From: a virus
Lineage: Duplodnaviria > Heunggongvirae > Uroviricota > Caudoviricetes
Virus record (IMG/VR): IMGVR_UViG_3300021310_000004
Direction: 5' to 3' (one strand)
Length of the DNA stretch: 12,503 bases
Shown in pieces: positions 1,319 through 12,360 of the stretch. Numbering within the stretch: the first letter of the stretch is position 1; the number at the start of each line of letters is the position of its first letter. The translations under genes were made by a program, and so were the position numbers. The notes below the pieces were generated by a model. It searched no databases. It was given only the letters and a program-made list of their open reading frames with translations, and had not been told where the DNA came from.

Positions 1319-1352
1319 GATATATCCTTTCTGTATATTTTTAGCTTTCAAT

Positions 1353-1378
1353 TAAATATGATTCGATTTTATGGATAC
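1353..1378 (-). promoter_or_regulatory. Class-B motif copy 1 (GTATCCA-N11-CATATTTA)
   Basis: Matches the copies at 3000-3025, 7473-7498 and 10531-10556 with identical spacing and is oriented toward the downstream ATG. Promoter function is inferred. Confidence 0.7.
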
Positions 1379-1412
1379 AAAAAAAGCAGACCCTTTATGA
1401 TAAGGGCCTGCT
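1379..1412 (-). terminator. Intrinsic terminator of the lipoprotein gene
   Basis: Minus strand AGCAGGCCCTT-ATCATA-AAGGGTCTGCT followed by a T-run, with one G-U wobble. It starts 9 nt after the stop codon. Confidence 0.85.
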
Positions 1413-2971: not shown

Positions 2972-2999
2972 TATTTTTACCTCCTAAGTGATTTATGTA

Positions 3000-3025
3000 T
3001 AAATATGTTGCGAATTTTTGGAAAC
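3000..3025 (-). promoter_or_regulatory. Class-B motif copy 2 (GTTTCCA-N11-CATATTTA)
   Basis: Same bipartite motif and spacing, 29 nt upstream of the lipoprotein start. Confidence 0.7.
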
Positions 3026-3036
3026 ATAAATATAAT
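3008..3036 (+). promoter_or_regulatory. Sigma-A-type promoter for hup
   Basis: TTGCGA (3008-3013), 17 bp spacer, TATAAT (3031-3036), upstream of the hup SD. Confidence 0.75.
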
Positions 3037-3091: not shown

Positions 3092-3367
3092 ATGAACAAA
3101 GCAGAACTTATTACTGCTATTTCTGATACAACGGATTATCAGAAGAAAGATATCGATGCAATTATTAACGCTTACACTAAAGTCGTAACAGACGCATTGA
3201 AATCTGGCGACAAGGTTCAGCTCGTAGGATTCGGTACCTATGAAGTTGCTACACGTCCAGCTAGAATCGGTCGCAACCCACAGACCGGAGCAGAAATGAA
3301 GATTCCTGCAGCGAAGGTACCTAAGTTTAAGCCAGGCAAAGCATTAAAGGACGCTGTTAATAAGTAA
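3092..3367 (+). CDS. hup: Histone-like DNA-binding protein HU
   Basis: MNKAELI start, signature VQLVGFGTYEV and RIGRNPQTGAEMKIPAAKVPKFKPGKALKDAV, 91 aa, SD AAGGAGG. Confidence 0.97.
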   Translation: MNKAELITAISDTTDYQKKDIDAIINAYTKVVTDALKSGDKVQLVGFGTYEVATRPARIGRNPQTGAEMKIPAAKVPKFKPGKALKDAVNK

Positions 3368-3424: not shown

Positions 3425-5617
3425 TTACATCGCTTTCTTTTTCTGACTTGACTCCGATGTCTCTTGTAAGAATTCCAATACCCTGGTTCGTCGTTTTACA
3501 AAATATTCGTTTTTCAAACAGCTTTCGAGCGCGTCACCCGTGTACAACAATATGACCTTCTTTTTCGCTCTTGTAATTGCTGTGTACAACAAATTACGAT
3601 TCATCATACGCTTTACATTCTCTTCGCCGGATAGATATATAATAATTACACCGTTTTCTGACCCTTGCGATTTATGAATCGTATAAGAATATGCATATCT
3701 AGCATCATTTAACACGGAACGCTTCATTGTCCGTTCATCTGTACCATCGAACAAAGTGACTTCGTCGTCATCTAAATCCTCAATGACCGCCACCTCTCCA
3801 TTTGTATAAATCGGCACTGATCTTGTTTCGCCGTTTTCGTCCATCTCGTTGACGTATTCATTCCGAATGAACATAATCTTATCGCCATTCATTAATTCAT
3901 CGGAGATATCCTCTCCGAGCTCTTTATGCGTGTTTCGATGTGTTCTAATGTTTAGCGCGTCGCATCCGGCGGCACCTTTTTTTGATGCCTCAATCAACTG
4001 GCAATAGAATGGTTCGTCTTTCTTGTAATACATATCCATTAGCCTGGATAATATGGAATACGCATGAAATTCGTTCTTAGCTCTTCCGATTGCAAAGTCG
4101 TCAGCTTTAATTGGCTCCTTACCTTTTAATACCCGTTTTCCGTTATCGATAATCGTTCCTTCACTTCTAAAGTTCTCCGTTAATCGATACACCGGAAACA
4201 ACCCGGATGAAATAACATCGTGCAAACAGTTGCCAGGACCAACAGATGGTAATTGATCTTCATCACCAACAATTAAGAACCGGCAATTCTCCGGAATTGC
4301 ATTTAGTAACATGCTGAACAAATGTGTGTCACACATGGAGCCTTCATCTAAGATAATGAGTCCAGCTTCTAATGGGTTGTTATTGTTACGTTCCGCGCCA
4401 TTATCTTGGAACGGATTGAACTCCAACAATTTCTGGATCGTTTTTGCTTCCATACCGGTTGACTCGGACAATCGTTTTGCAGCTCTGCCCGTTGGCGCAC
4501 ATAACAATACTGGTTGCCCAGGATTCTTCTTTTGGTAATAAATGATAATCCCATTTATGACCGTCGTTTTTCCCGTTCCTGGTCCACCGGTCAATACCAT
4601 GATTCCATTTTGTTCGAGCATATGGAACGCATTTCTTTGTCCCGTGCCGTACCTTGTATGTAACATATCTTCTATAGCTTCAATCTCGGCGTCTTCTATT
4701 ACGATTCCACTTTTGAGTCCCTCATCGATTCGCTTTAGTCGAATCGCAATATTCATTTCCTCATCATGAATCGATTTAAAAGATACGTACCCATTATTAT
4801 TATCCAAATGGAATATGCGATTTGTAGTAACCTCATTTGCTACGCACACAATCGGAATGTTACATCGATAGATGCTTTTTATGGATAAACGATTTACCCG
4901 TTGGCCAAGATCCTTAGCTTGAATATAAGTGTGCCCTTCATTTCCAATCTGGAGCAGCGCATAACTAATTAAACCGGCTATGCGACGTTTATCTAGTTCA
5001 TCAATATGCAAATCATGTGCGATATTATCAGCTACTTGGCGCTTGATGTCGAACTTGATGCATTCTGTATATGGATCCTTTTTGAATTTTGCAATTGCAC
5101 CGGTACCATATTCTTCATCGATTTTCTCGATGCTTGAGTATGACACTTCGTAAGGCGCAAAGAATTCTTCCAGATCCGAAATCGTGGACACATAATACCA
5201 CTCGTCGAGAAATGCAGCGATTGACTTGGCTGATATGCCGCCCTTGAATTCAGACTCTAATCGCTCCTTAAATACAGGCCTAGGCATTGTAAAGACATCT
5301 GCTCCAAACTGAGATACAATGGCCTCTACGCGCTTTTTCCCGATACCACATCCTTTAATCTTATTGGTCATATATCTAGCGACCTGATCCGACCGGCTAA
5401 AATATGGCTTAAGCCGGGTGGCCTCGAACACGCCGTTTTTAATATCGCCTGTAAGAACAACTGGCATATATAGATTTAATCTAGAGTTGAAATACAAGCA
5501 CTCCATGGATCCGGTGTTCTGTTCCTTTGCGCTATCCGCATCCAGCTGAACGCGGAATATAACCTTTGCACCGCAGACCTTTTTTGTTATGCTTGTGATG
5601 ATTCCTTTGATTTCCAT
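3425..5617 (-). CDS. recD2: RecD2-like SF1B ATP-dependent helicase, 730 aa (start moved from 5773 to 5617)
   Basis: Walker A GGPGTGKTT, LCAPTGRAAKRL, Walker B ILDEGSM, VGDEDQLPSVGPG, YTIHKSQGSE, RNLLYTAITRAKK and an N-terminal HhH-like GIGKKRVEAIV. ATG 5617 has SD GAAAGG, whereas the longer ORF crosses a terminator and motif A. Confidence 0.92.
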   Translation of the reverse strand: MEIKGIITSITKKVCGAKVIFRVQLDADSAKEQNTGSMECLYFNSRLNLYMPVVLTGDIKNGVFEATRLKPYFSRSDQVARYMTNKIKGCGIGKKRVEAIVSQFGADVFTMPRPVFKERLESEFKGGISAKSIAAFLDEWYYVSTISDLEEFFAPYEVSYSSIEKIDEEYGTGAIAKFKKDPYTECIKFDIKRQVADNIAHDLHIDELDKRRIAGLISYALLQIGNEGHTYIQAKDLGQRVNRLSIKSIYRCNIPIVCVANEVTTNRIFHLDNNNGYVSFKSIHDEEMNIAIRLKRIDEGLKSGIVIEDAEIEAIEDMLHTRYGTGQRNAFHMLEQNGIMVLTGGPGTGKTTVINGIIIYYQKKNPGQPVLLCAPTGRAAKRLSESTGMEAKTIQKLLEFNPFQDNGAERNNNNPLEAGLIILDEGSMCDTHLFSMLLNAIPENCRFLIVGDEDQLPSVGPGNCLHDVISSGLFPVYRLTENFRSEGTIIDNGKRVLKGKEPIKADDFAIGRAKNEFHAYSILSRLMDMYYKKDEPFYCQLIEASKKGAAGCDALNIRTHRNTHKELGEDISDELMNGDKIMFIRNEYVNEMDENGETRSVPIYTNGEVAVIEDLDDDEVTLFDGTDERTMKRSVLNDARYAYSYTIHKSQGSENGVIIIYLSGEENVKRMMNRNLLYTAITRAKKKVILLYTGDALESCLKNEYFVKRRTRVLEFLQETSESSQKKKAM

Positions 5618-5641
5618 ACGATTAGCGCCTTTCTTCCTATA

Positions 5642-5678
5642 TACAATACGTATCATTTGGACATATTTTGTGACAAAA
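5642..5678 (-). promoter_or_regulatory. Class-A motif copy 1 (TTTTGTCACAAA-N9-AATGATACGTATTGTA)
   Basis: 27 of 37 positions are identical across three copies (5642, 6596, 10400). It lies 25 nt upstream of the recD2 start. Confidence 0.8.
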
Positions 5679-5714
5679 AAAAGACGCGGCTCAGTTTTAC
5701 CCGAAGTCGCGCCT
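5675..5714 (-). terminator. Intrinsic terminator of the exonuclease-like gene
   Basis: Minus strand AGGCGCG...CGCGTCT outer stem plus an imperfect inner stem, then a T-run that merges into motif A. Confidence 0.65.
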
Positions 5715-5738: not shown

Positions 5739-6560
5739 TTACGCACTATGTTTGATTTTTTGAACCACCTCATAAATAGAAGCGGATTTTGTCTTATTCA
5801 TAATATACTCCGTAAACGAATCCATATCAACCTCATCAAATTGCTTACCATAATCCTTAAAATACAAATTATCGCAGTCCAACAATATGAGACCTGATTC
5901 TGTGGTAAACACGATATGCCGGCCATGTTCGTTCTCAACATAGGTAGCATTTTTCACGAAGCCATCTTTCACGGCCGCATCCGCTTTTGGTAGTCTTTTA
6001 TAAAGAGCATCAAGCGCTTTCGTATAACCAGCCAAGTTTGCCGTTACGTTAAATACGCTGCACAAATCATTGAACGTATATCCGCTATTATTTACATCCG
6101 GAAGAATTACCGTCTTGAATAATGTCTTTACATCAAATCCGCCAATCGCTGCTAAAGGCACGCCGGTTGTTTTGGCCGCCTTAAACAGAAACGGATAAAT
6201 AAATCTCTTCGTATTGAATCCACAAATGTACGTATTCGTACCTAAAAACTGATTCAGTTCCTCAAGAACGTCTTTTAGGTTACAACCATTATCAATCATT
6301 GGTTGTGTGATGCCGGAAGCTTTAGATGCCTCGATTGAGATCACCTTTTTCGTCTTAATGATCTTCGCAAAAGTTGCTCCAGAAATCAGATTGTCTCCAG
6401 CATCTAGTTTTACGGCACGAATTCCACAGATCTCATCTACCTCTGGATCAAATCCGGTGGTTTCGATTTTAATAAAACATAAAGAGGCCTCTTTATTTCG
6501 AACTCTAGCCAAGATCTTCTTATATGTCATATCGTTTTGAGTTTTATAGTATCTTACCAT
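5739..6560 (-). CDS. DnaQ/PolC-type DEDDh exonuclease-fold protein, probably catalytically degenerate, 273 aa
   Basis: ExoI-like FIKIETTGFDPEVDEICGIRAV, SKASGITQPMI, L.EVLEEL.QFL and ExoII-like GFNTKRFIYPFL. Several catalytic positions are substituted. SD AAGGAGG. Confidence 0.8.
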   Translation of the reverse strand: MVRYYKTQNDMTYKKILARVRNKEASLCFIKIETTGFDPEVDEICGIRAVKLDAGDNLISGATFAKIIKTKKVISIEASKASGITQPMIDNGCNLKDVLEELNQFLGTNTYICGFNTKRFIYPFLFKAAKTTGVPLAAIGGFDVKTLFKTVILPDVNNSGYTFNDLCSVFNVTANLAGYTKALDALYKRLPKADAAVKDGFVKNATYVENEHGRHIVFTTESGLILLDCDNLYFKDYGKQFDEVDMDSFTEYIMNKTKSASIYEVVQKIKHSA

Positions 6561-6595
6561 TTTTTGCCTCCTTCATTTTCTATAATAATCCTACC

Positions 6596-6632
6596 TATAA
6601 TACGTATCATTGAACCATGCTTTGTGACAAAA
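6596..6632 (-). promoter_or_regulatory. Class-A motif copy 2 (TTTTGTCACAAA-N9-AATGATACGTATTATA)
   Basis: Same conserved blocks and spacing, 36 nt upstream of ATG 6560. Confidence 0.8.
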
Positions 6633-6672
6633 AAAAGCACCAAACAATGGATTTTCCATCGTCTGATGCTTT
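6629..6672 (-). terminator. Intrinsic terminator of the 235-aa SSB-like gene
   Basis: 18-bp stem (6634-6651/6655-6672) whose three non-Watson-Crick pairs are all G-U on the minus strand, followed by a T-run overlapping motif A. Confidence 0.9.
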
Positions 6673-6676
6673 AATA

Positions 6677-7384
6677 TTATTCTTCCGGAGTCTCGATTTG
6701 CACTGTACCGATAACGAACACATCTCTAGCTACTAATTGCTGTTCTGTGATCTCTCGGCCGTCCTTGAGCGTTGTGTATCGTGTGTTGATCCACCCGGTA
6801 ACATCTAACCAGGTACCCTTGGTAAGTTCATTCTTGATGATCTGAACATCGTGTTCACCCTCCTTGTTTCGATGGATGGCAACCGGAGTCTCGGATACGT
6901 AATCAATCTCAAAGAACTCCTTATCAGATTCCTTATTCGGGTTCTTAACTTTCTTATGAACATTCGTATACAGGTACACCAGAATAATCTCGTTCGAAAT
7001 TACAACTGTTTTTGTGATGCGTCCGCGAATGTTCATATTCTTACGGTCGAAAATCTCTTTACCGCTTGCAATTCGGCTGGACATCGTAAGTCCATATACC
7101 TCAACCTGATCTCTTGCAATATCATAATTTCGCTTCTTTTGTGATACGCCGGAGATAACGACCATATCACCAAGCTCAAACATCTTATCGTACGTAGATC
7201 CAAGTGCCCCTTCAAAGTACACGGAAATTCTCGTGTATTTTGCAGCCTGCCCGCGACCCTTCTTAACAGATACGGTAAATACATGCTTGTTTTTGAGCTG
7301 TTTCTTAAAAATTAGCTTGCCTGAAATGATAACGCTGTTATGGAATTCAAATTCGTTACCACTACTTTTGATTACATTTGACAT
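6677..7384 (-). CDS. Tandem-OB-fold SSB-like protein, 235 aa
   Basis: Two SSB-like repeats: NSVIISGKL...LGDMVVISG and NMNIRGRI...LTKGTWLDVTGWINTRYTTLKDGREITEQQLVARDV. SD AGAAAGGA. Confidence 0.7.
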   Translation of the reverse strand: MSNVIKSSGNEFEFHNSVIISGKLIFKKQLKNKHVFTVSVKKGRGQAAKYTRISVYFEGALGSTYDKMFELGDMVVISGVSQKKRNYDIARDQVEVYGLTMSSRIASGKEIFDRKNMNIRGRITKTVVISNEIILVYLYTNVHKKVKNPNKESDKEFFEIDYVSETPVAIHRNKEGEHDVQIIKNELTKGTWLDVTGWINTRYTTLKDGREITEQQLVARDVFVIGTVQIETPEE

Positions 7385-7472
7385 GAATTTTAGTTCCTTT
7401 CTATCATATTTTGTTCGTTCGCTCGGACTTTCATCTCGGATATAAGTAACCGAGAATTCCCGTCCGCATTCT

Positions 7473-7498
7473 TAAATATGAACCTGGTTTTTGGAAAG
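7473..7498 (-). promoter_or_regulatory. Class-B motif copy 3 (CTTTCCA-N11-CATATTTA)
   Basis: Same motif and spacing, 89 nt upstream of ATG 7384 and 1 nt from the upstream terminator T-run. Confidence 0.7.
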
Positions 7499-7499
7499 T

Positions 7500-7528
7500 A
7501 AAAACTCCGCCAGTAATTGGCGGAATCT
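7500..7528 (-). terminator. Intrinsic terminator closing the sigma/ClpX-like operon
   Basis: Minus strand TCCGCCA-ATTAC-TGGCGGA followed by GTTTTT. Confidence 0.85.
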
Positions 7529-7548: not shown

Positions 7549-7689
7549 TTATTGAGTTTTCTTGCGTAGTCGTTCGATTGGACATGCACCTTCTTTTACG
7601 CTATCCATACAATCATTATTATTAGAAGAGACCATGCACTTTCCTTCTACGCAAGAAGGATACTCTTTGATTGCCTTGTTCCAATCCAT
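7549..7689 (-). CDS. 46-aa Cys4 microprotein (not in ORF track)
   Basis: MDWNKAIKEYPSCVEGKCMVSSNNNDCMDSVKEGACPIERLRKKTQ. SD AGAAAGGA sits directly after the stop of the upstream ATPase gene, and a terminator follows. Confidence 0.7.
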   Translation of the reverse strand: MDWNKAIKEYPSCVEGKCMVSSNNNDCMDSVKEGACPIERLRKKTQ

Positions 7690-7710
7690 TGTATTGTTCC
7701 TTTCTATATA

Positions 7711-8868
7711 TTAATTCAAATATTCTTCCGGCTTATCATCCCAAACCATGCTTTGTTCGAACCAGTTCTGTTCCTCTTCCATACGTACGATTTTTTCTTC
7801 TTCAGACAATCGCTGGAATGGTTCCCATGTATATGTTGCGTCGTGTAGTTTATTGATCGTGATAGACAATTTCTTAACATCGTGATTTACGATCGCATTC
7901 GTGTACGCTTCCAATACGGTCTCTCGCAACGCAGCATCAATTAATCTACATCCGTATTTAGAATTCGCCATCTGTACCAGTTCTTCTTCGGCGCTATCAA
8001 GAACGGTAAGGGAATCCAGGTTAAAGTTCTGCGCGATATTCCGAACGGTTTTTGTGATGACCATTTTGATATCATCTATTCCAAGTTTATTGTAATTAAC
8101 AATATACGGAAAGCGTCCGATTATTTCGTTTGACGCTCCAGCATCAACCATATCGTTTCTGGTCAATGGAAGATATGGATTATCCTTCTCTGTGTTCCAA
8201 GTTGAGTTGATGCCGATTGGATTCTTCTTCTCCTCTCTTCTATTGCGAAATGATTCAAATGATCCAAGGCCAACGAACATCAATCTATCTGTTTTTATTG
8301 TTCCGCGATCATTCGTATATACTTCGCCACCCTCAATCATGCTAAGCAAAGATGCCTGTACATCACCATTTACGTTTGTTCCATTGGAGTCGTACATTGG
8401 GATTACCTTCTTATCGAACTCGTCTAAGAATACGATTCCCATAGGATTCATATCACGTCGCTTAATAAATGGCGCTAAAATAGAAACTGTATCATTTCCC
8501 TTGAATCCATTTGCGGTAACAGATGACATATCGTAAATGTAAACGGAAAGAGATGGTACTGCTTTTGAAAAATACTTTTGAATCGCACGATACGTCTCGG
8601 TCTTTCCGGATCCAGACGGCGCACTGATAATCATATTATTGCGAATCGGAGAGTCTTGCAGCAGAGCGTTTAAATAAGAATAAACGTTTGCACATACCTG
8701 CTTTAATCCATCCTGACCAATTACGTCTTCTTTGACACTATTATAGAACGTTGAAAATGGGACCTCCTCCAACCAATGGGAGATTTCGTTTTTAACAAGG
8801 ATGCTGTGCATGTCACCTGTTAATCCTTTCTGTGGTACTGTTGTAAATTCTGTAATATTACTATCCAA
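7711..8868 (-). CDS. ClpX/HslU-like AAA+ ATPase lacking the N-terminal zinc-binding domain, 385 aa
   Basis: VIGQD, Walker A APSGSGKT, pore-loop ANGFKGND (ClpX EAGYVGED), Walker B IVFLDEFDK, GDVQASLLSMIEG, TDRLMFVGLGSF, EIIGRFP and sensor-2-like YGCRL. TTG start with SD AAGGAGG. Confidence 0.88.
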   Translation of the reverse strand: MDSNITEFTTVPQKGLTGDMHSILVKNEISHWLEEVPFSTFYNSVKEDVIGQDGLKQVCANVYSYLNALLQDSPIRNNMIISAPSGSGKTETYRAIQKYFSKAVPSLSVYIYDMSSVTANGFKGNDTVSILAPFIKRRDMNPMGIVFLDEFDKKVIPMYDSNGTNVNGDVQASLLSMIEGGEVYTNDRGTIKTDRLMFVGLGSFESFRNRREEKKNPIGINSTWNTEKDNPYLPLTRNDMVDAGASNEIIGRFPYIVNYNKLGIDDIKMVITKTVRNIAQNFNLDSLTVLDSAEEELVQMANSKYGCRLIDAALRETVLEAYTNAIVNHDVKKLSITINKLHDATYTWEPFQRLSEEEKIVRMEEEQNWFEQSMVWDDKPEEYLN

Positions 8869-8932
8869 TATTTTGTCCTCCTTTTCATGCTCTAATAATA
8901 AGTAAAAAGACCGGTTTTTCGGCTGTTTGGTT

Positions 8933-10159
8933 TTAGAAAATATCTAAAATATCTTCCAAATCGTCCTCATCTTCCTGCTCGAAAACAAGTCCGCGACCAG
9001 ACAAAAGCTTGTCGCCGCGCTTCTCCCGGACGTTATATGATTTCTTCAACTTCTGCAGTGCTCCGGAGATAATCTGCTGAATTTTGATACGATCAATTCC
9101 GGTCATCTCTTCGATCTCATAGGCCTTCATCGGACGCGTTTCAATAAACTGATTACCATCACACTCTAACCCGAGATTAAGGCACAACAGTGTGCGTTCT
9201 TCATCGGTAAGGTTCCCCAGATGCTGCATCATGTCGCTACGTTTCTCCTGATCCAATAAATTGGATTCTGGCATTGCGAAACTCGTTTGAGCAATCATTC
9301 CGCCACTGTTATTAAAATCTGGAGAATCGATCGTTGTCATTGTGTTCTTTGCATATACACGAGCCAACGCTTCCGATACTTCCTTTACGGACTTATTTGT
9401 CATATGAGCAATAAGCGCAGTAGTTGGCACGATTCCTCGTTTCTCGCATTCGCTAAGTGCATTGATAACAAGTTTATTCGTACGCATATCCTGCTTATTT
9501 GGTTCTCCGGTTCTTTTCGCTTCAAATTCAAACACGGAGCCCGACAATATCTTCGCATTAAAGAATGTAGTAAGCTGGTATCCAGTGCTTGGATCGTATC
9601 GGTCAATATTTTCCCAAATATAGGCTGCGCACTGGTTCAATGCTTCTACAACTCGGTTGTAGCGTTCTGAGTCTGAAATTGGCTGCTTCTTATAATAATT
9701 CTCACATACGGTACGAACATAGTTTCTAATCGTCAGCCATAATGCATTCTTAGCAAGTTCAAATGCATCCTTGTATTCCGGACCATATAATTCCTTATTC
9801 ATGTCCTGGATAAATGTGATCAAGAACAATTTTGCATCGTTGCAGTTTCGCTTTGCAAAATAGGTTGCATATCGAATCGCTTCTCTTTTTGATTTTGCAT
9901 CATCTTTATAAAGAAGCGTTAGCGCCTTATTCTGGTCAAATTCCTTGTCTTCATATGTTTTGTCCAGCCCGTAGCGCATCCAGTCATTCAGAGCCTCTTC
10001 TTCTTTTGCGCGTTTCTTTTGAGGCTTCTTTTTAGGAACATCAATTTCATCCAAGACACTCATCGACTCATCCAGCTCAGATTCGTGTTTTGTTTCGTTT
10101 TTATGAACTTCGTCATAATAATCAACATCATCGTAACGTTCATCATCTAATACGTACAT
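8933..10159 (-). CDS. Divergent sigma70-family RNA polymerase sigma factor, 408 aa
   Basis: Region 2-like IWENIDRYDPSTGYQLTTFF, region 3-like PTTALIAHMTNKSVKEVSEAL...TIDSP and region 4 LGNLTDEERTLLCLNLGL...AYEIEEMTGIDRIKIQQIISGALQKLKK. SD AGAGGT. Confidence 0.85.
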   Translation of the reverse strand: MYVLDDERYDDVDYYDEVHKNETKHESELDESMSVLDEIDVPKKKPQKKRAKEEEALNDWMRYGLDKTYEDKEFDQNKALTLLYKDDAKSKREAIRYATYFAKRNCNDAKLFLITFIQDMNKELYGPEYKDAFELAKNALWLTIRNYVRTVCENYYKKQPISDSERYNRVVEALNQCAAYIWENIDRYDPSTGYQLTTFFNAKILSGSVFEFEAKRTGEPNKQDMRTNKLVINALSECEKRGIVPTTALIAHMTNKSVKEVSEALARVYAKNTMTTIDSPDFNNSGGMIAQTSFAMPESNLLDQEKRSDMMQHLGNLTDEERTLLCLNLGLECDGNQFIETRPMKAYEIEEMTGIDRIKIQQIISGALQKLKKSYNVREKRGDKLLSGRGLVFEQEDEDDLEDILDIF

Positions 10160-10177
10160 ATTTTCTTACCTCTCTAA

Positions 10178-10369
10178 TCAAAACCACTTCATCGTCCGAC
10201 CGTTCTTGTATTGTTCATTTGCTACCGAATGCATCCATGCGATATCGGCCATTTCAATAAAGTCCTTGTTTTTTTGTTCCTGTATTACATAATTCACGGC
10301 TTCTGTCGGAGTTTTGAATGTACCGTCACGCAGTACCTGATCTAATAAATCATATGTATCTTTTTGCAT
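10178..10369 (-). CDS. Small hypothetical protein, 63 aa (start moved from 10444 to 10369)
   Basis: ATG 10369 has SD GAAAGGAG. MQKDTYDLLDQV...MKWF ends 18 nt before the sigma start codon. Confidence 0.7.
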   Translation of the reverse strand: MQKDTYDLLDQVLRDGTFKTPTEAVNYVIQEQKNKDFIEMADIAWMHSVANEQYKNGRTMKWF

Positions 10370-10399
10370 GATCCGGCTCCTTTCAAAATACCATTCACA

Positions 10400-10436
10400 T
10401 ATAATACGTATCATTGTTTGTCGTTTTGTGACAAAA
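10400..10436 (-). promoter_or_regulatory. Class-A motif copy 3 (TTTTGTCACAAA-N9-AATGATACGTATTATA)
   Basis: Same conserved blocks and spacing, 31 nt upstream of the first gene of the sigma operon. Confidence 0.8.
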
Positions 10437-10530
10437 TTTTCCATCCTTTTTTAACACATTATGTATTGATTAATGTAGCTACATATGTAAAGAAGTAAAT
10501 CCATTCGATGAACTTTTTAAATCGTTATTA

Positions 10531-10556
10531 GTTTCCAAATATTAATTTCATATTTA
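10531..10556 (+). promoter_or_regulatory. Class-B motif copy 4 (GTTTCCA-N11-CATATTTA)
   Basis: Same motif on the plus strand, so it flips with gene orientation. It lies 40 nt upstream of ATG 10596. Confidence 0.72.
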
Positions 10557-10595
10557 AAACATGTAAAACAAACCATATAGAAAGGAATATAAAAA

Positions 10596-11447
10596 ATGGC
10601 AAAAGAAAACTACGTATCGCTCCGTGGCCAATTACGCCAGGAAGCAAAATACATTGTCGATCCAGATACAGGTGCATTTAAAAAGGCTGTCTTCAGACTT
10701 ACCGTATTGCGCCGTGATACACGAGATCGTGCAAACAATTTTTCACCAAAATTTGACAAACCAATCATTTCTACAGAGGATTTTGGCATCATCAAACAGA
10801 TCCAAAAGCTGCAGGTTGGAGACATCGTTGAAATAAAGGGTGTCTACAAAACAAAGTACATCAAGAAACAGTGCAAGTGCCCAAAGTGCGAATCGGTAAA
10901 TGTTTTTGACACCCCGTTCCCAACAATCACTCCACTGTTCGTTGGAAAGTGTACCGAGCTTGGCACAAATGTCGAAGGCACCGACTATCTGAAGGACTGC
11001 GCTGAGATTTCGAATATTGTTAAATTGATTGGCCGAGTATGTATCGATAAGGAGGATTTTCAGTACGGCGAGACAGATCGTGGAGATCGTTATGTGAAGT
11101 ATAAGATTGCCGTTAACCGTAAATTCTTCGATGCTAGTTCAGAGGGCCTGGATGATCATACCGATTACCCGGTTGTTTATTCCTACAACGATGTTGCAGA
11201 CTCTGATATGGCGATGTTAAAGAAGGGCACTCTTATTTATCTGGATGGATATCTTCATACAATGAATTATGATGCCGAAGTTGAGTGCTGCGAGTGCGGC
11301 GAATCTTTTAAGGTTCCAATGCAGCGCATGAATGTTACTCCATATGCGAACGAATACTTGCGCGACTACATCGAAGATGGTATGGAGTCTACGCATAAGG
11401 AAGCAATGGAAGATCCGGCCCCAATGCATGATGGTGACCTGGGATAG
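10596..11447 (+). CDS. Tandem-OB-fold SSB-like protein with two CxxC knuckles, 283 aa
   Basis: Repeats ENYVSLRGQL...LQVGDIVEIKG and SNIVKLIGRV...YKIAVNRK...TDYPVVYSY...LKKGTLIYLDGYLHT are SSB-like. CPKC (95-98) and CCEC (231-234). SD AGAAAGGA. Confidence 0.8.
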   Translation: MAKENYVSLRGQLRQEAKYIVDPDTGAFKKAVFRLTVLRRDTRDRANNFSPKFDKPIISTEDFGIIKQIQKLQVGDIVEIKGVYKTKYIKKQCKCPKCESVNVFDTPFPTITPLFVGKCTELGTNVEGTDYLKDCAEISNIVKLIGRVCIDKEDFQYGETDRGDRYVKYKIAVNRKFFDASSEGLDDHTDYPVVYSYNDVADSDMAMLKKGTLIYLDGYLHTMNYDAEVECCECGESFKVPMQRMNVTPYANEYLRDYIEDGMESTHKEAMEDPAPMHDGDLG

Positions 11448-11993: not shown

Positions 11994-12022
11994 TTGATTT
12001 GGCATAACAGATTTGCTAAGCT
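11994..12022 (+). promoter_or_regulatory. Sigma-A-type promoter for the toxin-like mRNA
   Basis: TTGATT (11994-11999), 17 bp spacer, TG-C-TAAGCT (12017-12022). Predicted +1 is near A12029. Confidence 0.55.
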
Positions 12023-12111
12023 TCTGATAGTGCCACCTAGAGAAAACGGTAGCGGTTTGGCCTTTCAACGTATGGTTTTCATACGCCTTCCTGCGAATTG
12101 GAGGTGTCGCC

Positions 12112-12129
12112 ATGAGGAAAGTACAGTGA
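12112..12129 (+). other. 5-codon upstream ORF (MRKVQ) with a strong SD
   Basis: GGAGGTG at 12100-12106, ATG at 12112, TGA at 12127-12129, directly followed by the AAGGG SD-like element of the toxin ORF. Confidence 0.45.
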
Positions 12130-12139
12130 AAGGGTCATA

Positions 12140-12259
12140 GTGGATTTGTTGAAACTTATTGGTGCTCTTGCATCAGTCGTCAGTGCAATCGTCGCACTCG
12201 TCCGTCTGATATGGGATATCCATAAAGATGGACAACAAAAAAGCAACCGCCGTCGCTAA
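12140..12259 (+). CDS. Putative type I toxin, 39-aa single-TM peptide (not in ORF track)
   Basis: GTG start. MDLLKLIGALASVVSAIVALVRLIWDIHKDGQQKSNRRR has a hydrophobic helix plus a charged/basic tail, with a convergent antisense promoter downstream. Confidence 0.72.
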   Translation: MDLLKLIGALASVVSAIVALVRLIWDIHKDGQQKSNRRR

Positions 12260-12275
12260 GGTAAGGTTGCTTTTT
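12237..12275. terminator. Bidirectional hairpin overlapping the toxin stop; terminator of the antisense RNA
   Basis: 11-bp stem AAAAAGCAACC/GGTTGCTTTTT with a 16-nt loop that contains the toxin TAA. Confidence 0.75.
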
Positions 12276-12326
12276 CTCAGTAACTATTAACCAAGGCCAA
12301 CCGTCTATCGAGGTGGCACTTTTGTT
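12237..12326 (-). ncRNA. Putative ~90-nt cis-antisense antitoxin RNA
   Basis: Bounded by a near-consensus promoter (12333-12360) and the U-tract terminator. It overlaps the toxin 3' end and has an internal GCCACC/GGUUGGC hairpin. Confidence 0.65.
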
Positions 12327-12332
12327 GTCTTA

Positions 12333-12360
12333 ATTATAACATCATAGAACGATAAGTCAA
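12333..12360 (-). promoter_or_regulatory. Strong sigma-A-type promoter for the antisense RNA
   Basis: TTGACT (12360-12355), 16 bp spacer, extended -10 TG-T-TATAAT (12338-12333). Confidence 0.8.

Follow-up and report, generated by a model that had tools for sequence, protein, structure and literature searches.

A divergent sigma-70-family factor bundled with a small helical protein and a ClpX-type AAA+ protein in large Lachnospiraceae elements

Gene row and conserved gene order

The sequence analyzed here (the window) is a 12,503-nt stretch of the IMG/VR virus record IMGVR_UViG_3300021310_000004, assigned to Caudoviricetes. Its minus strand carries a row of four genes, encoding a small protein of 63 amino acids (aa; 10178-10369, ATG at 10369 behind the ribosome-binding site GAAAGGAG), a divergent 408-aa sigma-70-family factor (8933-10159), a 385-aa AAA+ protein predicted to be a ClpX-family unfoldase (7711-8868, TTG start), and a 46-aa cysteine-rich open reading frame (ORF) with the pattern C-x4-C-x8-C-x8-C and a good ribosome-binding site (7549-7689). 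An earlier reading of the sequence (the original prediction) had described them as one regulatory operon, and the layout on which it relied is present: gaps of 18, 64 and 21 nt, a promoter-like motif (class A, see below) at the 5’ end, and a terminator-like hairpin of 11 pairs with a T-run (7528-7502, minus strand) closing the row. On identical public contigs, gene calling yields these four products as well, and there too the first one is 63 aa long.

The conserved core, however, consists of three genes, those for the 63-aa protein, the sigma factor and the AAA+ protein, and not of four. This gene order was found in 11 lineages (the window, L007/L008, L005, L006, L016, L018, the 95-kb contig of P0016, L025, L027, L037, and L041), in which the sigma identity falls to about 23-29%. 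In every member of the sigma family with a visible downstream side, over a range of ~23-100% sigma identity, the AAA+ gene follows the sigma gene, so that the sigma and ClpX-like pair, proposed originally from a single locus, is linked in homologous elements. In L006, an additional 167-aa gene separates the two. In each related locus with a visible upstream side, a gene of the 63-aa protein family immediately precedes the sigma gene, the two genes overlapping in some loci. Apart from L018, whose contig starts at the sigma gene, all sigma-bearing loci are matched by the family profile (A6); the family was also found in L025, L037, and L041, and weakly (E 0.039) in L027. L016 has an additional ORF of about 62 aa (1160-1420) between the class-A motif and the small-protein gene.

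The fourth gene behaves differently. No homolog of the 46-aa ORF was detected by tblastn in any related locus, and the gaps at its position are too short for it in L005 (96 nt) and L007 (83 nt); it is thus absent even from L007, whose sigma is 76-77% identical. Since a homolog is missing from every related locus, the cysteine-rich peptide is best described as a recent lineage-specific addition outside the conserved system, and the role given to it as a Cys4 microprotein of the switch was dropped.

A divergently transcribed SSB-like (single-stranded DNA-binding) gene and a gene for its 75-aa partner flank the trio in seven of the 11 lineages. Downstream, where this side is visible, there is usually a gene for an OB-fold (oligonucleotide/oligosaccharide-binding) protein, followed by an exonuclease and a RecD2 helicase gene. 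Co-inherited in large phage-like or plasmid-like elements of Lachnospiraceae, the trio lies within their cluster of replication genes (SSB-like, OB-fold, exonuclease, RecD2 helicase).

Transcription of all four genes of the window as one unit is plausible but not certain, because the intergenic region between the sigma and AAA+ genes (8869-8932, minus strand), which carries the ribosome-binding site of the latter, contains a weak hairpin with a T-run (-7.7 kcal/mol), a possible attenuator, and because at this position L005, L006, and L016 have a strong terminator followed by a class-A or class-A-like promoter. In L018, L025, L027, L037, and L041 the sigma-to-AAA+ gap is 3-18 nt. A blastn search of the region against phage and plasmid collections gave no match, and Rfam and tRNA scans of the window were empty.

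The sigma-70-family protein

The 408-aa protein has an acidic N-terminus, a confidently predicted helical N-domain (approximately residues 60-160), regions 2, 3, and 4, and a conserved C-terminal tail. It has no Pfam or PHROG match at E<=0.01, Pfam Sigma70_r4 being reached only at E 0.064. NCBIfam sigma models align over residues 147-385 (FliA/WhiG, 1.9e-8; RpoS, 4.9e-8; RpoD-type, 7e-7), the alignments starting at residues 147-185, in region 2; all of these matches are below the model cut-offs (34.3 bits for the best one vs 189.6 required). A profile built from four close relatives and searched against 1.84 billion representative proteins yielded 165 proteins at E<=0.001. About 35 of them are full-length relatives of 350-490 aa, and the remaining ones are shorter proteins aligned at positions 170-375 alone; among 20 of the latter, Pfam domains Sigma70_r2, r4, and r3 were found in 16, 13, and 8, respectively. 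Alignment of the sigma family with this shorter Pfam-sigma set by hhalign had a probability of 100% (E 8e-42, 263 columns). The AlphaFold model is of moderate quality (pLDDT, the predicted local distance difference test, of 61), and the top 50 PDB chains retrieved with it by Foldseek were all sigma-S, -A, -B, or -32, with probability 1.00 and E 1.5e-5 over 260-370 columns.

The individual regions agree with this assignment, as originally proposed. In region 2, the family has kept the YDPxxG...TTFF block, and T198 is shared by all 33 sequences compared. Residues ~222-275 correspond in the alignments to region 3 of sigma factors of groups 1-3, which sets the protein apart from sigma factors of the extracytoplasmic function (ECF) type, defined by regions 2 and 4 without region 3. 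For region 4, the family profile matched RpoD region 4 structures at E 0.0098, r4 was found in 5 of 33 family members, and the hhalign alignment extends over this region. Regions 2, 3, and 4 are under purifying selection. By profile-profile and fold evidence, curated cut-offs being missed, the 408-aa protein is thus a member of the sigma-70 family with regions 2, 3, and 4 and not an ECF-type factor; we infer that it binds core RNA polymerase and initiates transcription at specific promoters.

The segments singled out earlier as diverged, LTTFFNAKILSG and RIKIQQI, fall in stretches that align to regions 2.3-2.4 and 4.2, respectively. Members of the clade share an N-terminal YDDxDYYDE and have TTFF where other sigma factors have the STYATWW block, so that region 2.3-2.4 lacks its tryptophan pair (TTFFNAK vs STYATWW); the recognition helix of region 4.2 varies within the clade. 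The tail that follows region 4 (8933-9010 of the window) is composed of KRGDxLLSGRGLxF, an acidic run, and DDIIxI[F/Y], and is conserved in the clade. We take it, as a lead only, to resemble the acidic tips of SSB proteins. Two OB-fold/SSB-like genes adjoin the row.

The missing tryptophan pair, the failure at all curated cut-offs, the long extensions unrelated to sigma factors and the conserved acidic-hydrophobic C-terminus would also fit a protein that does not initiate transcription, acting as a decoy or inhibitor on the host core RNA polymerase or, via its acidic tail, as a replication-coupled adaptor. We consider this quite improbable. The pair is likewise lacking in group 3 and group 4 sigma factors, regions 2, 3, and 4 have been retained under purifying selection, and the two private promoter classes described below need a reader.

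Sigma factors of phages and plasmids are a main route by which mobile elements take over host transcription, and to our knowledge almost nothing is known of such takeover in large elements of Lachnospiraceae, a dominant family of the gut and rumen. Phage sigma cascades are exemplified by gp28 and gp33/34 of Bacillus phage SPO1 and by gp55 with gp33 of T4. The present system resembles them in combining an element-encoded sigma-70-family protein with non-housekeeping promoter classes before element gene blocks, and in having a small protein encoded beside the sigma, like T4 gp33 and gp55. It differs in that the sigma belongs to a rare separate clade (~35 clusters among the 1.84 billion representatives) with its own N-domain and conserved tail, and its gene is always followed by one for a ClpX-type AAA+ protein. 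PHROGs gave no match, and the sigma showed no sequence relation to gp28, gp34, or gp55. Searches of IMG/VR for relatives of the sigma and of the genome collection with its peptide patterns were negative. Group 2 jumbo phages are also known to encode sigma factors (PMC7824862). The single ingredients (sigma factors encoded by phages, private classes of promoters, and the control of sigma activity by Clp proteins) are thus all known already; the novelty lies in a rare sigma clade, missed by annotation, whose members always come with a small helical protein and with an unfoldase of the ClpX type devoid of the zinc finger.

The small 63-aa protein

The model of the 63-aa protein is a three-helix bundle (pLDDT 85). 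The protein belongs to no Pfam, PHROG, NCBIfam, or PADLOC family and has no fold match in the PDB at E<=0.001, and neither the family libraries nor the PDB fold search revealed an anti-sigma domain or fold. The predicted complex of the protein with the sigma scored 0.00, which counts neither for nor against binding.

The ClpX-family AAA+ protein

The AAA+ protein matches Pfam AAA_2 (1.8e-12) and the NCBIfam ClpX and HslU models (1.1e-19 and 6e-14), and its family profile aligns to ClpX chains of the PDB at E 2e-22, which bears out the ClpX-like character seen initially. With ClpX it shares the AAA+ clade, conserved Walker A (SAPSGSGKT) and Walker B (IVFLDEFD) motifs, an aromatic pore-1 loop, and the sensor-2-like GCRLI, aligned to the sensor-2 region. 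IGI, IGL, TGF, and IGL in four lineages stand at the position aligned with the ClpP-docking LGF/IGF loop. It differs from ClpX in being encoded by the element, in the pore loop itself (GFKG, aligned to GYVG of Helicobacter pylori ClpX), in a score far below the equivalog cut-off (70.6 bits vs 359 for NF003745), and in the absence of the C4 zinc-binding N-domain: matches begin at about residue 42-48, and there is no Cys4 motif in the first 45 residues. PADLOC returned nothing beyond generic AAA+ similarity. The protein is accordingly predicted to act as a ClpX-type unfoldase without being a ClpX ortholog, and it probably docks on host ClpP via the IGF-like loop.

The dependence between the two larger genes of the trio is one-way: the sigma always occurs with the AAA+ gene, while the AAA+ gene mostly occurs without the sigma. 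At E<=1e-10 the AAA+ family comprises over 912 proteins, most of which come from isolates and metagenome-assembled genomes of Lachnospiraceae, vs about 40 sigma clusters, and no sigma of this clade lies within 10 kb of 22 of the 23 close genomic copies. An unfoldase dedicated to the sigma, as first envisaged, is not compatible with this distribution. The AAA+ protein could instead have no mechanistic tie to the sigma, being a general unfoldase or protease adaptor (for host takeover, replication-complex remodeling, or assembly) that shares an early/middle gene block with it, a reading which we hold possible at clearly less than an even chance. It would suit the position of the module among SSB-like, OB-fold, exonuclease, and helicase genes, the chromosomal copies in Lachnospira multipara, and the AAA+ gene of G001, a complete 119.5-kb provirus-class IMG/VR record (the record of L009 and also of L028-L033), which lies 8 kb from an unrelated sigma. 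ClpX itself remodels MuA and lambda O in replication. For ClpX and ClpA homologs of jumbo phages, a role as translocases or as chaperones in assembly has been suggested (PMC7824862). On the other side stand the unfailing presence of the AAA+ gene after each sigma with a visible downstream side, often at 3-18 nt, and the AAA+ tree, in which the sigma-linked copies cluster (4 label changes; each of 500 shuffles gave more) and 20 sigma-less copies form a separate clade. Because of the strict one-way co-inheritance, the short gaps, and the shared promoter class, a functional tie between the AAA+ protein and the sigma is suggested.

Promoter-like motif classes

Two motif classes noticed in the original prediction were recovered in numbers far above expectation. 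Class A, in the form TTGTCACAAA-N10-ATGATACGTATT, has three exact copies in the window vs none expected (200 shuffles), all on the minus strand. One precedes the sigma row (10393-10441, exact copy at 10403-10434; TTGTCACAAA-N10-ATGATACGTATTAT), 24 nt upstream of the 63-aa gene, and exact copies precede the gene for a DnaQ-like exonuclease (motif 6589-6637, gene 5739-6560) and that for a RecD2-like helicase (motif 5635-5683, likely gene start 5617). Its general form, TGTCACA-N12/13-TGnnnCGTATTA, is found ahead of the small-protein/sigma row in six lineages (the window, L007, L005, L006, L016, and L019), as well as ahead of the exonuclease, the helicase, and the S26 peptidase gene of L005. In L005 and L006, the AAA+ gene has its own class-A promoter located after a terminator. 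A search of IMG/VR for class A gave four single chance-level matches and nothing more.

Class B, TWTCCAWAWA-N7-CATATTTAW, has four copies in the window, none being expected: before the 235-aa OB-fold gene (7472-7504, minus strand; TTTCCAAAAA-N7-CATATTTAA), where it is orthologous in L005, L006, L007, and L016; before the divergently transcribed SSB-like gene (10524-10557, plus strand; gene 10596-11447); and before the genes for a 516-aa lipoprotein (2999-3031, minus strand) and a giant 1667-aa protein (1352-1384, minus strand). The copy of the SSB-like gene is conserved in sigma-bearing loci showing that side, including L025 and L027. In all sigma-bearing lineages with DNA available for comparison, including L025, L027, L037, and L041, the general form, sTTTCC-N12-CATATTTAA, has an invariant core; in L037 the class takes the form YYATGTTTAAT before at least 12 genes. 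The co-occurrence of both motifs with the sigma, which the prediction had implied, therefore holds for class B throughout these lineages but not for class A, which was not seen in L025, L027, and L037 although the sigma is present there.

Class B was never found ahead of the sigma row. In L037 the row lies behind a third motif, TTTACA-N13/14-TGTCCTATAT, which also precedes two other genes, and in L025 and L027 sigma-A-like sites with palindromes occupy this position. Judged by copy number, conservation, and location, both classes are genuine, conserved motifs in positions typical of promoters. Neither is of the housekeeping type, since canonical sigma-A promoters occur elsewhere in the window, before the HU gene and in a toxin-antitoxin-like locus. 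The near-canonical promoter of the HU gene (3092-3367, plus strand), TTGCGA-17-TATAAT at 3008-3036, overlaps the opposite-strand class-B motif of the lipoprotein gene (2999-3031).

Two candidate interpretations of these motifs were rejected. One took class A for a dimeric operator built from two palindromes, but the second of these, ATACGTAT, is not conserved in L005, L006, L016, and L019, in all of which the asymmetric block YGTATTA is. Class-B-like matches in loci of Bacilli and Erysipelotrichaceae lie inside coding sequence and were attributed to chance.

In phage T4, sigma appropriation by AsiA/MotA serves the middle promoters, where a MotA box and a -10 element of the sigma-70 type lie about 12 bp apart. 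We take class B to be comparable in its layout, with a conserved box followed after about 12 nt by a -10-like element in which A(-11) and T(-7) are retained. It differs in that CATATTTAA is longer and far more conserved than the sigma-70 -10 hexamer, and no MotA or AsiA homolog was found in the loci examined. Class A resembles the ECF41 promoter signature TGTCACA-n16(+/-1)-CGTC (Wecke et al., 2012, PMC3426412) in its identical -35 heptamer TGTCACA, its CGT-containing -10 block at 17-18 nt, and its location before the sigma’s own row. Differences from ECF41 are region 3 of the sigma, a longer -10 block (TGnnnCGTATTA), and the absence of the hallmark COE (carboxymuconolactone decarboxylase, oxidoreductase, epimerase) neighbor genes.

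Regulation

The trio most likely reprogrammes host transcription. The sigma would bind the host core RNA polymerase and redirect it to an element-private promoter class, for which class B is the leading candidate, while the sigma row itself would be expressed from another, earlier class (class A in the window), thus forming a cascade. This arrangement fits because the sigma row always sits behind a class other than B. The AAA+ gene would be co-regulated with the sigma gene, on the same transcript or from a class-A promoter of its own, and its product, probably docked on host ClpP, would unfold a protein of the switch: the small protein, the sigma, or host sigma-A. Proteolytic gating of sigma factors is textbook knowledge, ClpXP taking part in the turnover of sigma and anti-sigma factors such as RseA, RsiW, and, with RssB, sigma-S. 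Taken together, the three-gene module, the sigma-driven cascade, and the action of the AAA+ protein on a switch protein form the reading that we favor at somewhat better than an even chance.

The sigma is a candidate reader for either of the two conserved private classes. That it reads class B we put at nearly an even chance, whereas class A is a possible but doubtful target, and a sigma reading neither class seems unlikely. In favor of class B, this motif accompanies the sigma in all lineages, including those with ~23-29% sigma identity. Furthermore, region 2 is the best-conserved DNA-contact part of the sigma, in parallel with the invariant CATATTTAA, and both the 4.2 helix and the upstream box of class B vary among lineages.

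Several observations weigh against class B as the target, and most of them come from G001. Its AAA+ protein is 40% identical to that of the window, and it has no sigma of this clade, no small protein of the 63-aa family, and no class A; it nevertheless contains 25 CATATTTAA sites vs 1 in the control. Such sites stand ahead of most of its gene blocks, about 21 of them at a distance of 30-45 nt from the ribosome-binding site downstream. The single sigma of G001 is RpoD-like (97410-98450), has canonical recognition residues, and is itself preceded by a class-B-like site, TTTGTTTG-N13-CATATTTAG. Since G001 has class B and not the sigma, class B can be read without this sigma. Class A, in contrast, has the classic two-block geometry of alternative-sigma promoters, stands before the sigma’s own row, and is absent from G001, all of which would fit autoregulation. 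Against the favored reading as a whole, the AAA+ family being much larger and mostly sigma-less, adjacency of the AAA+ and sigma genes may reflect a shared early/middle gene module and not a common mechanism.

In an alternative view, the sigma would read class A, including the promoters of its own row, the AAA+, exonuclease, and helicase genes, as a self-amplifying switch with ECF-like logic. Its small, co-transcribed partner would be an anti-sigma factor cleared by Clp-type removal, and class B would be read by a primary-type sigma (host sigma-A, or the RpoD-like protein in G001) together with a factor at the box near -30. The placement of class A ahead of the sigma row in six lineages, and separately ahead of the AAA+ gene in L005 and L006, agrees with such a switch, and so does the absence of both class A and the sigma clade from G001, where class B is abundant. 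The class-B core CATATT, keeping A(-11) and T(-7), is compatible with the canonical region 2 of the G001 RpoD-like sigma, and the class before the sigma row shifts by sub-clade (TGTCACA... vs TTTACA-N13/14-TGTCCTATAT in L037), as expected if a promoter co-evolves with its sigma. Class A, viewed as TGTCACA-N17/18-CGTA, also resembles the ECF41 signature (PMC3426412). However, the predicted -35-contact residues differ among lineages (RIKIQQ, KDTIQR, RGVVQQ, SKDVAQ) despite the invariant TGTCACA, sigma-bearing L025, L027, and L037 show no class A, the sigma has region 3 and is not of the ECF type, and a start-up source of sigma would be required. We regard the self-amplifying switch as doubtful, if far from negligible, and retain the cascade with class B as the leading target.

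A side observation concerns the genome of L. multipara LB2003. Three tandem class-A copies precede an L005-like AAA+ gene in it (G002:C8:50128-51531; L038, L122) and are the only ones in this 2.6-Mb genome, which has no sigma of this clade. The AAA+ gene and its class-A copies are best read as a recently captured fragment, which decides nothing about the target of the sigma. A host ECF regulon reading class A in L. multipara was considered and rejected, as there are only these three copies, all before the captured gene. In a second L. multipara strain (L034), this position is occupied by a 97-aa gene behind a CATATTTAAG site instead.

A more far-reaching reading would make the trio an obligate unit of a new kind. 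The unfoldase would act directly on the transcription machinery, freeing the sigma of the small protein or the core enzyme of host sigma-A by stripping or unfolding, and the SSB-like acidic tip of the sigma would tether it to the neighboring OB-fold/SSB-like replication proteins. We deem it distinctly unlikely; if true, it would mean that transcription of the element is licensed by both proteolysis and replication.

Carrier elements, hosts, and other features of the window

The carrier of the window, which matches a 78-kb metagenomic contig, is described here as phage-like, and a plasmid-like nature is also considered. Among the products of L005 are an S26 peptidase and a protein with a tail domain. 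In some cases the trio may be carried by conjugative or plasmid-like elements and not by phages, because L037 has genes for a TnpB-like protein, a primase, and a type IV secretion coupling protein (at 4248-5588, 5811-7199, and 19414-21236). Two chromosomal AAA+ copies of L. multipara are almost identical to the AAA+ gene of L005, and this near-identity points to L. multipara as a host for such elements, offering a tractable cultured rumen bacterium for testing the switch.

The giant protein and several of its neighbors belong to no Pfam or PHROG family, and a private RNA polymerase was neither found nor excluded. The SSB-like protein (10596-11447, 283 aa) contains two cysteine pairs (regions CPKC and CCEC), pointing to a double OB-fold protein into which zinc ribbons are inserted. 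Beyond it, about 1.2 kb (around window positions 11994-12360) has no called genes. This region includes a putative 39-aa hydrophobic peptide with a basic tail (12140-12259, plus strand), faced by a strong convergent sigma-A-type promoter (TTGACT-16-TATAAT with TG, 12360-12333, minus strand), and its layout is that of a type I toxin-antitoxin locus.

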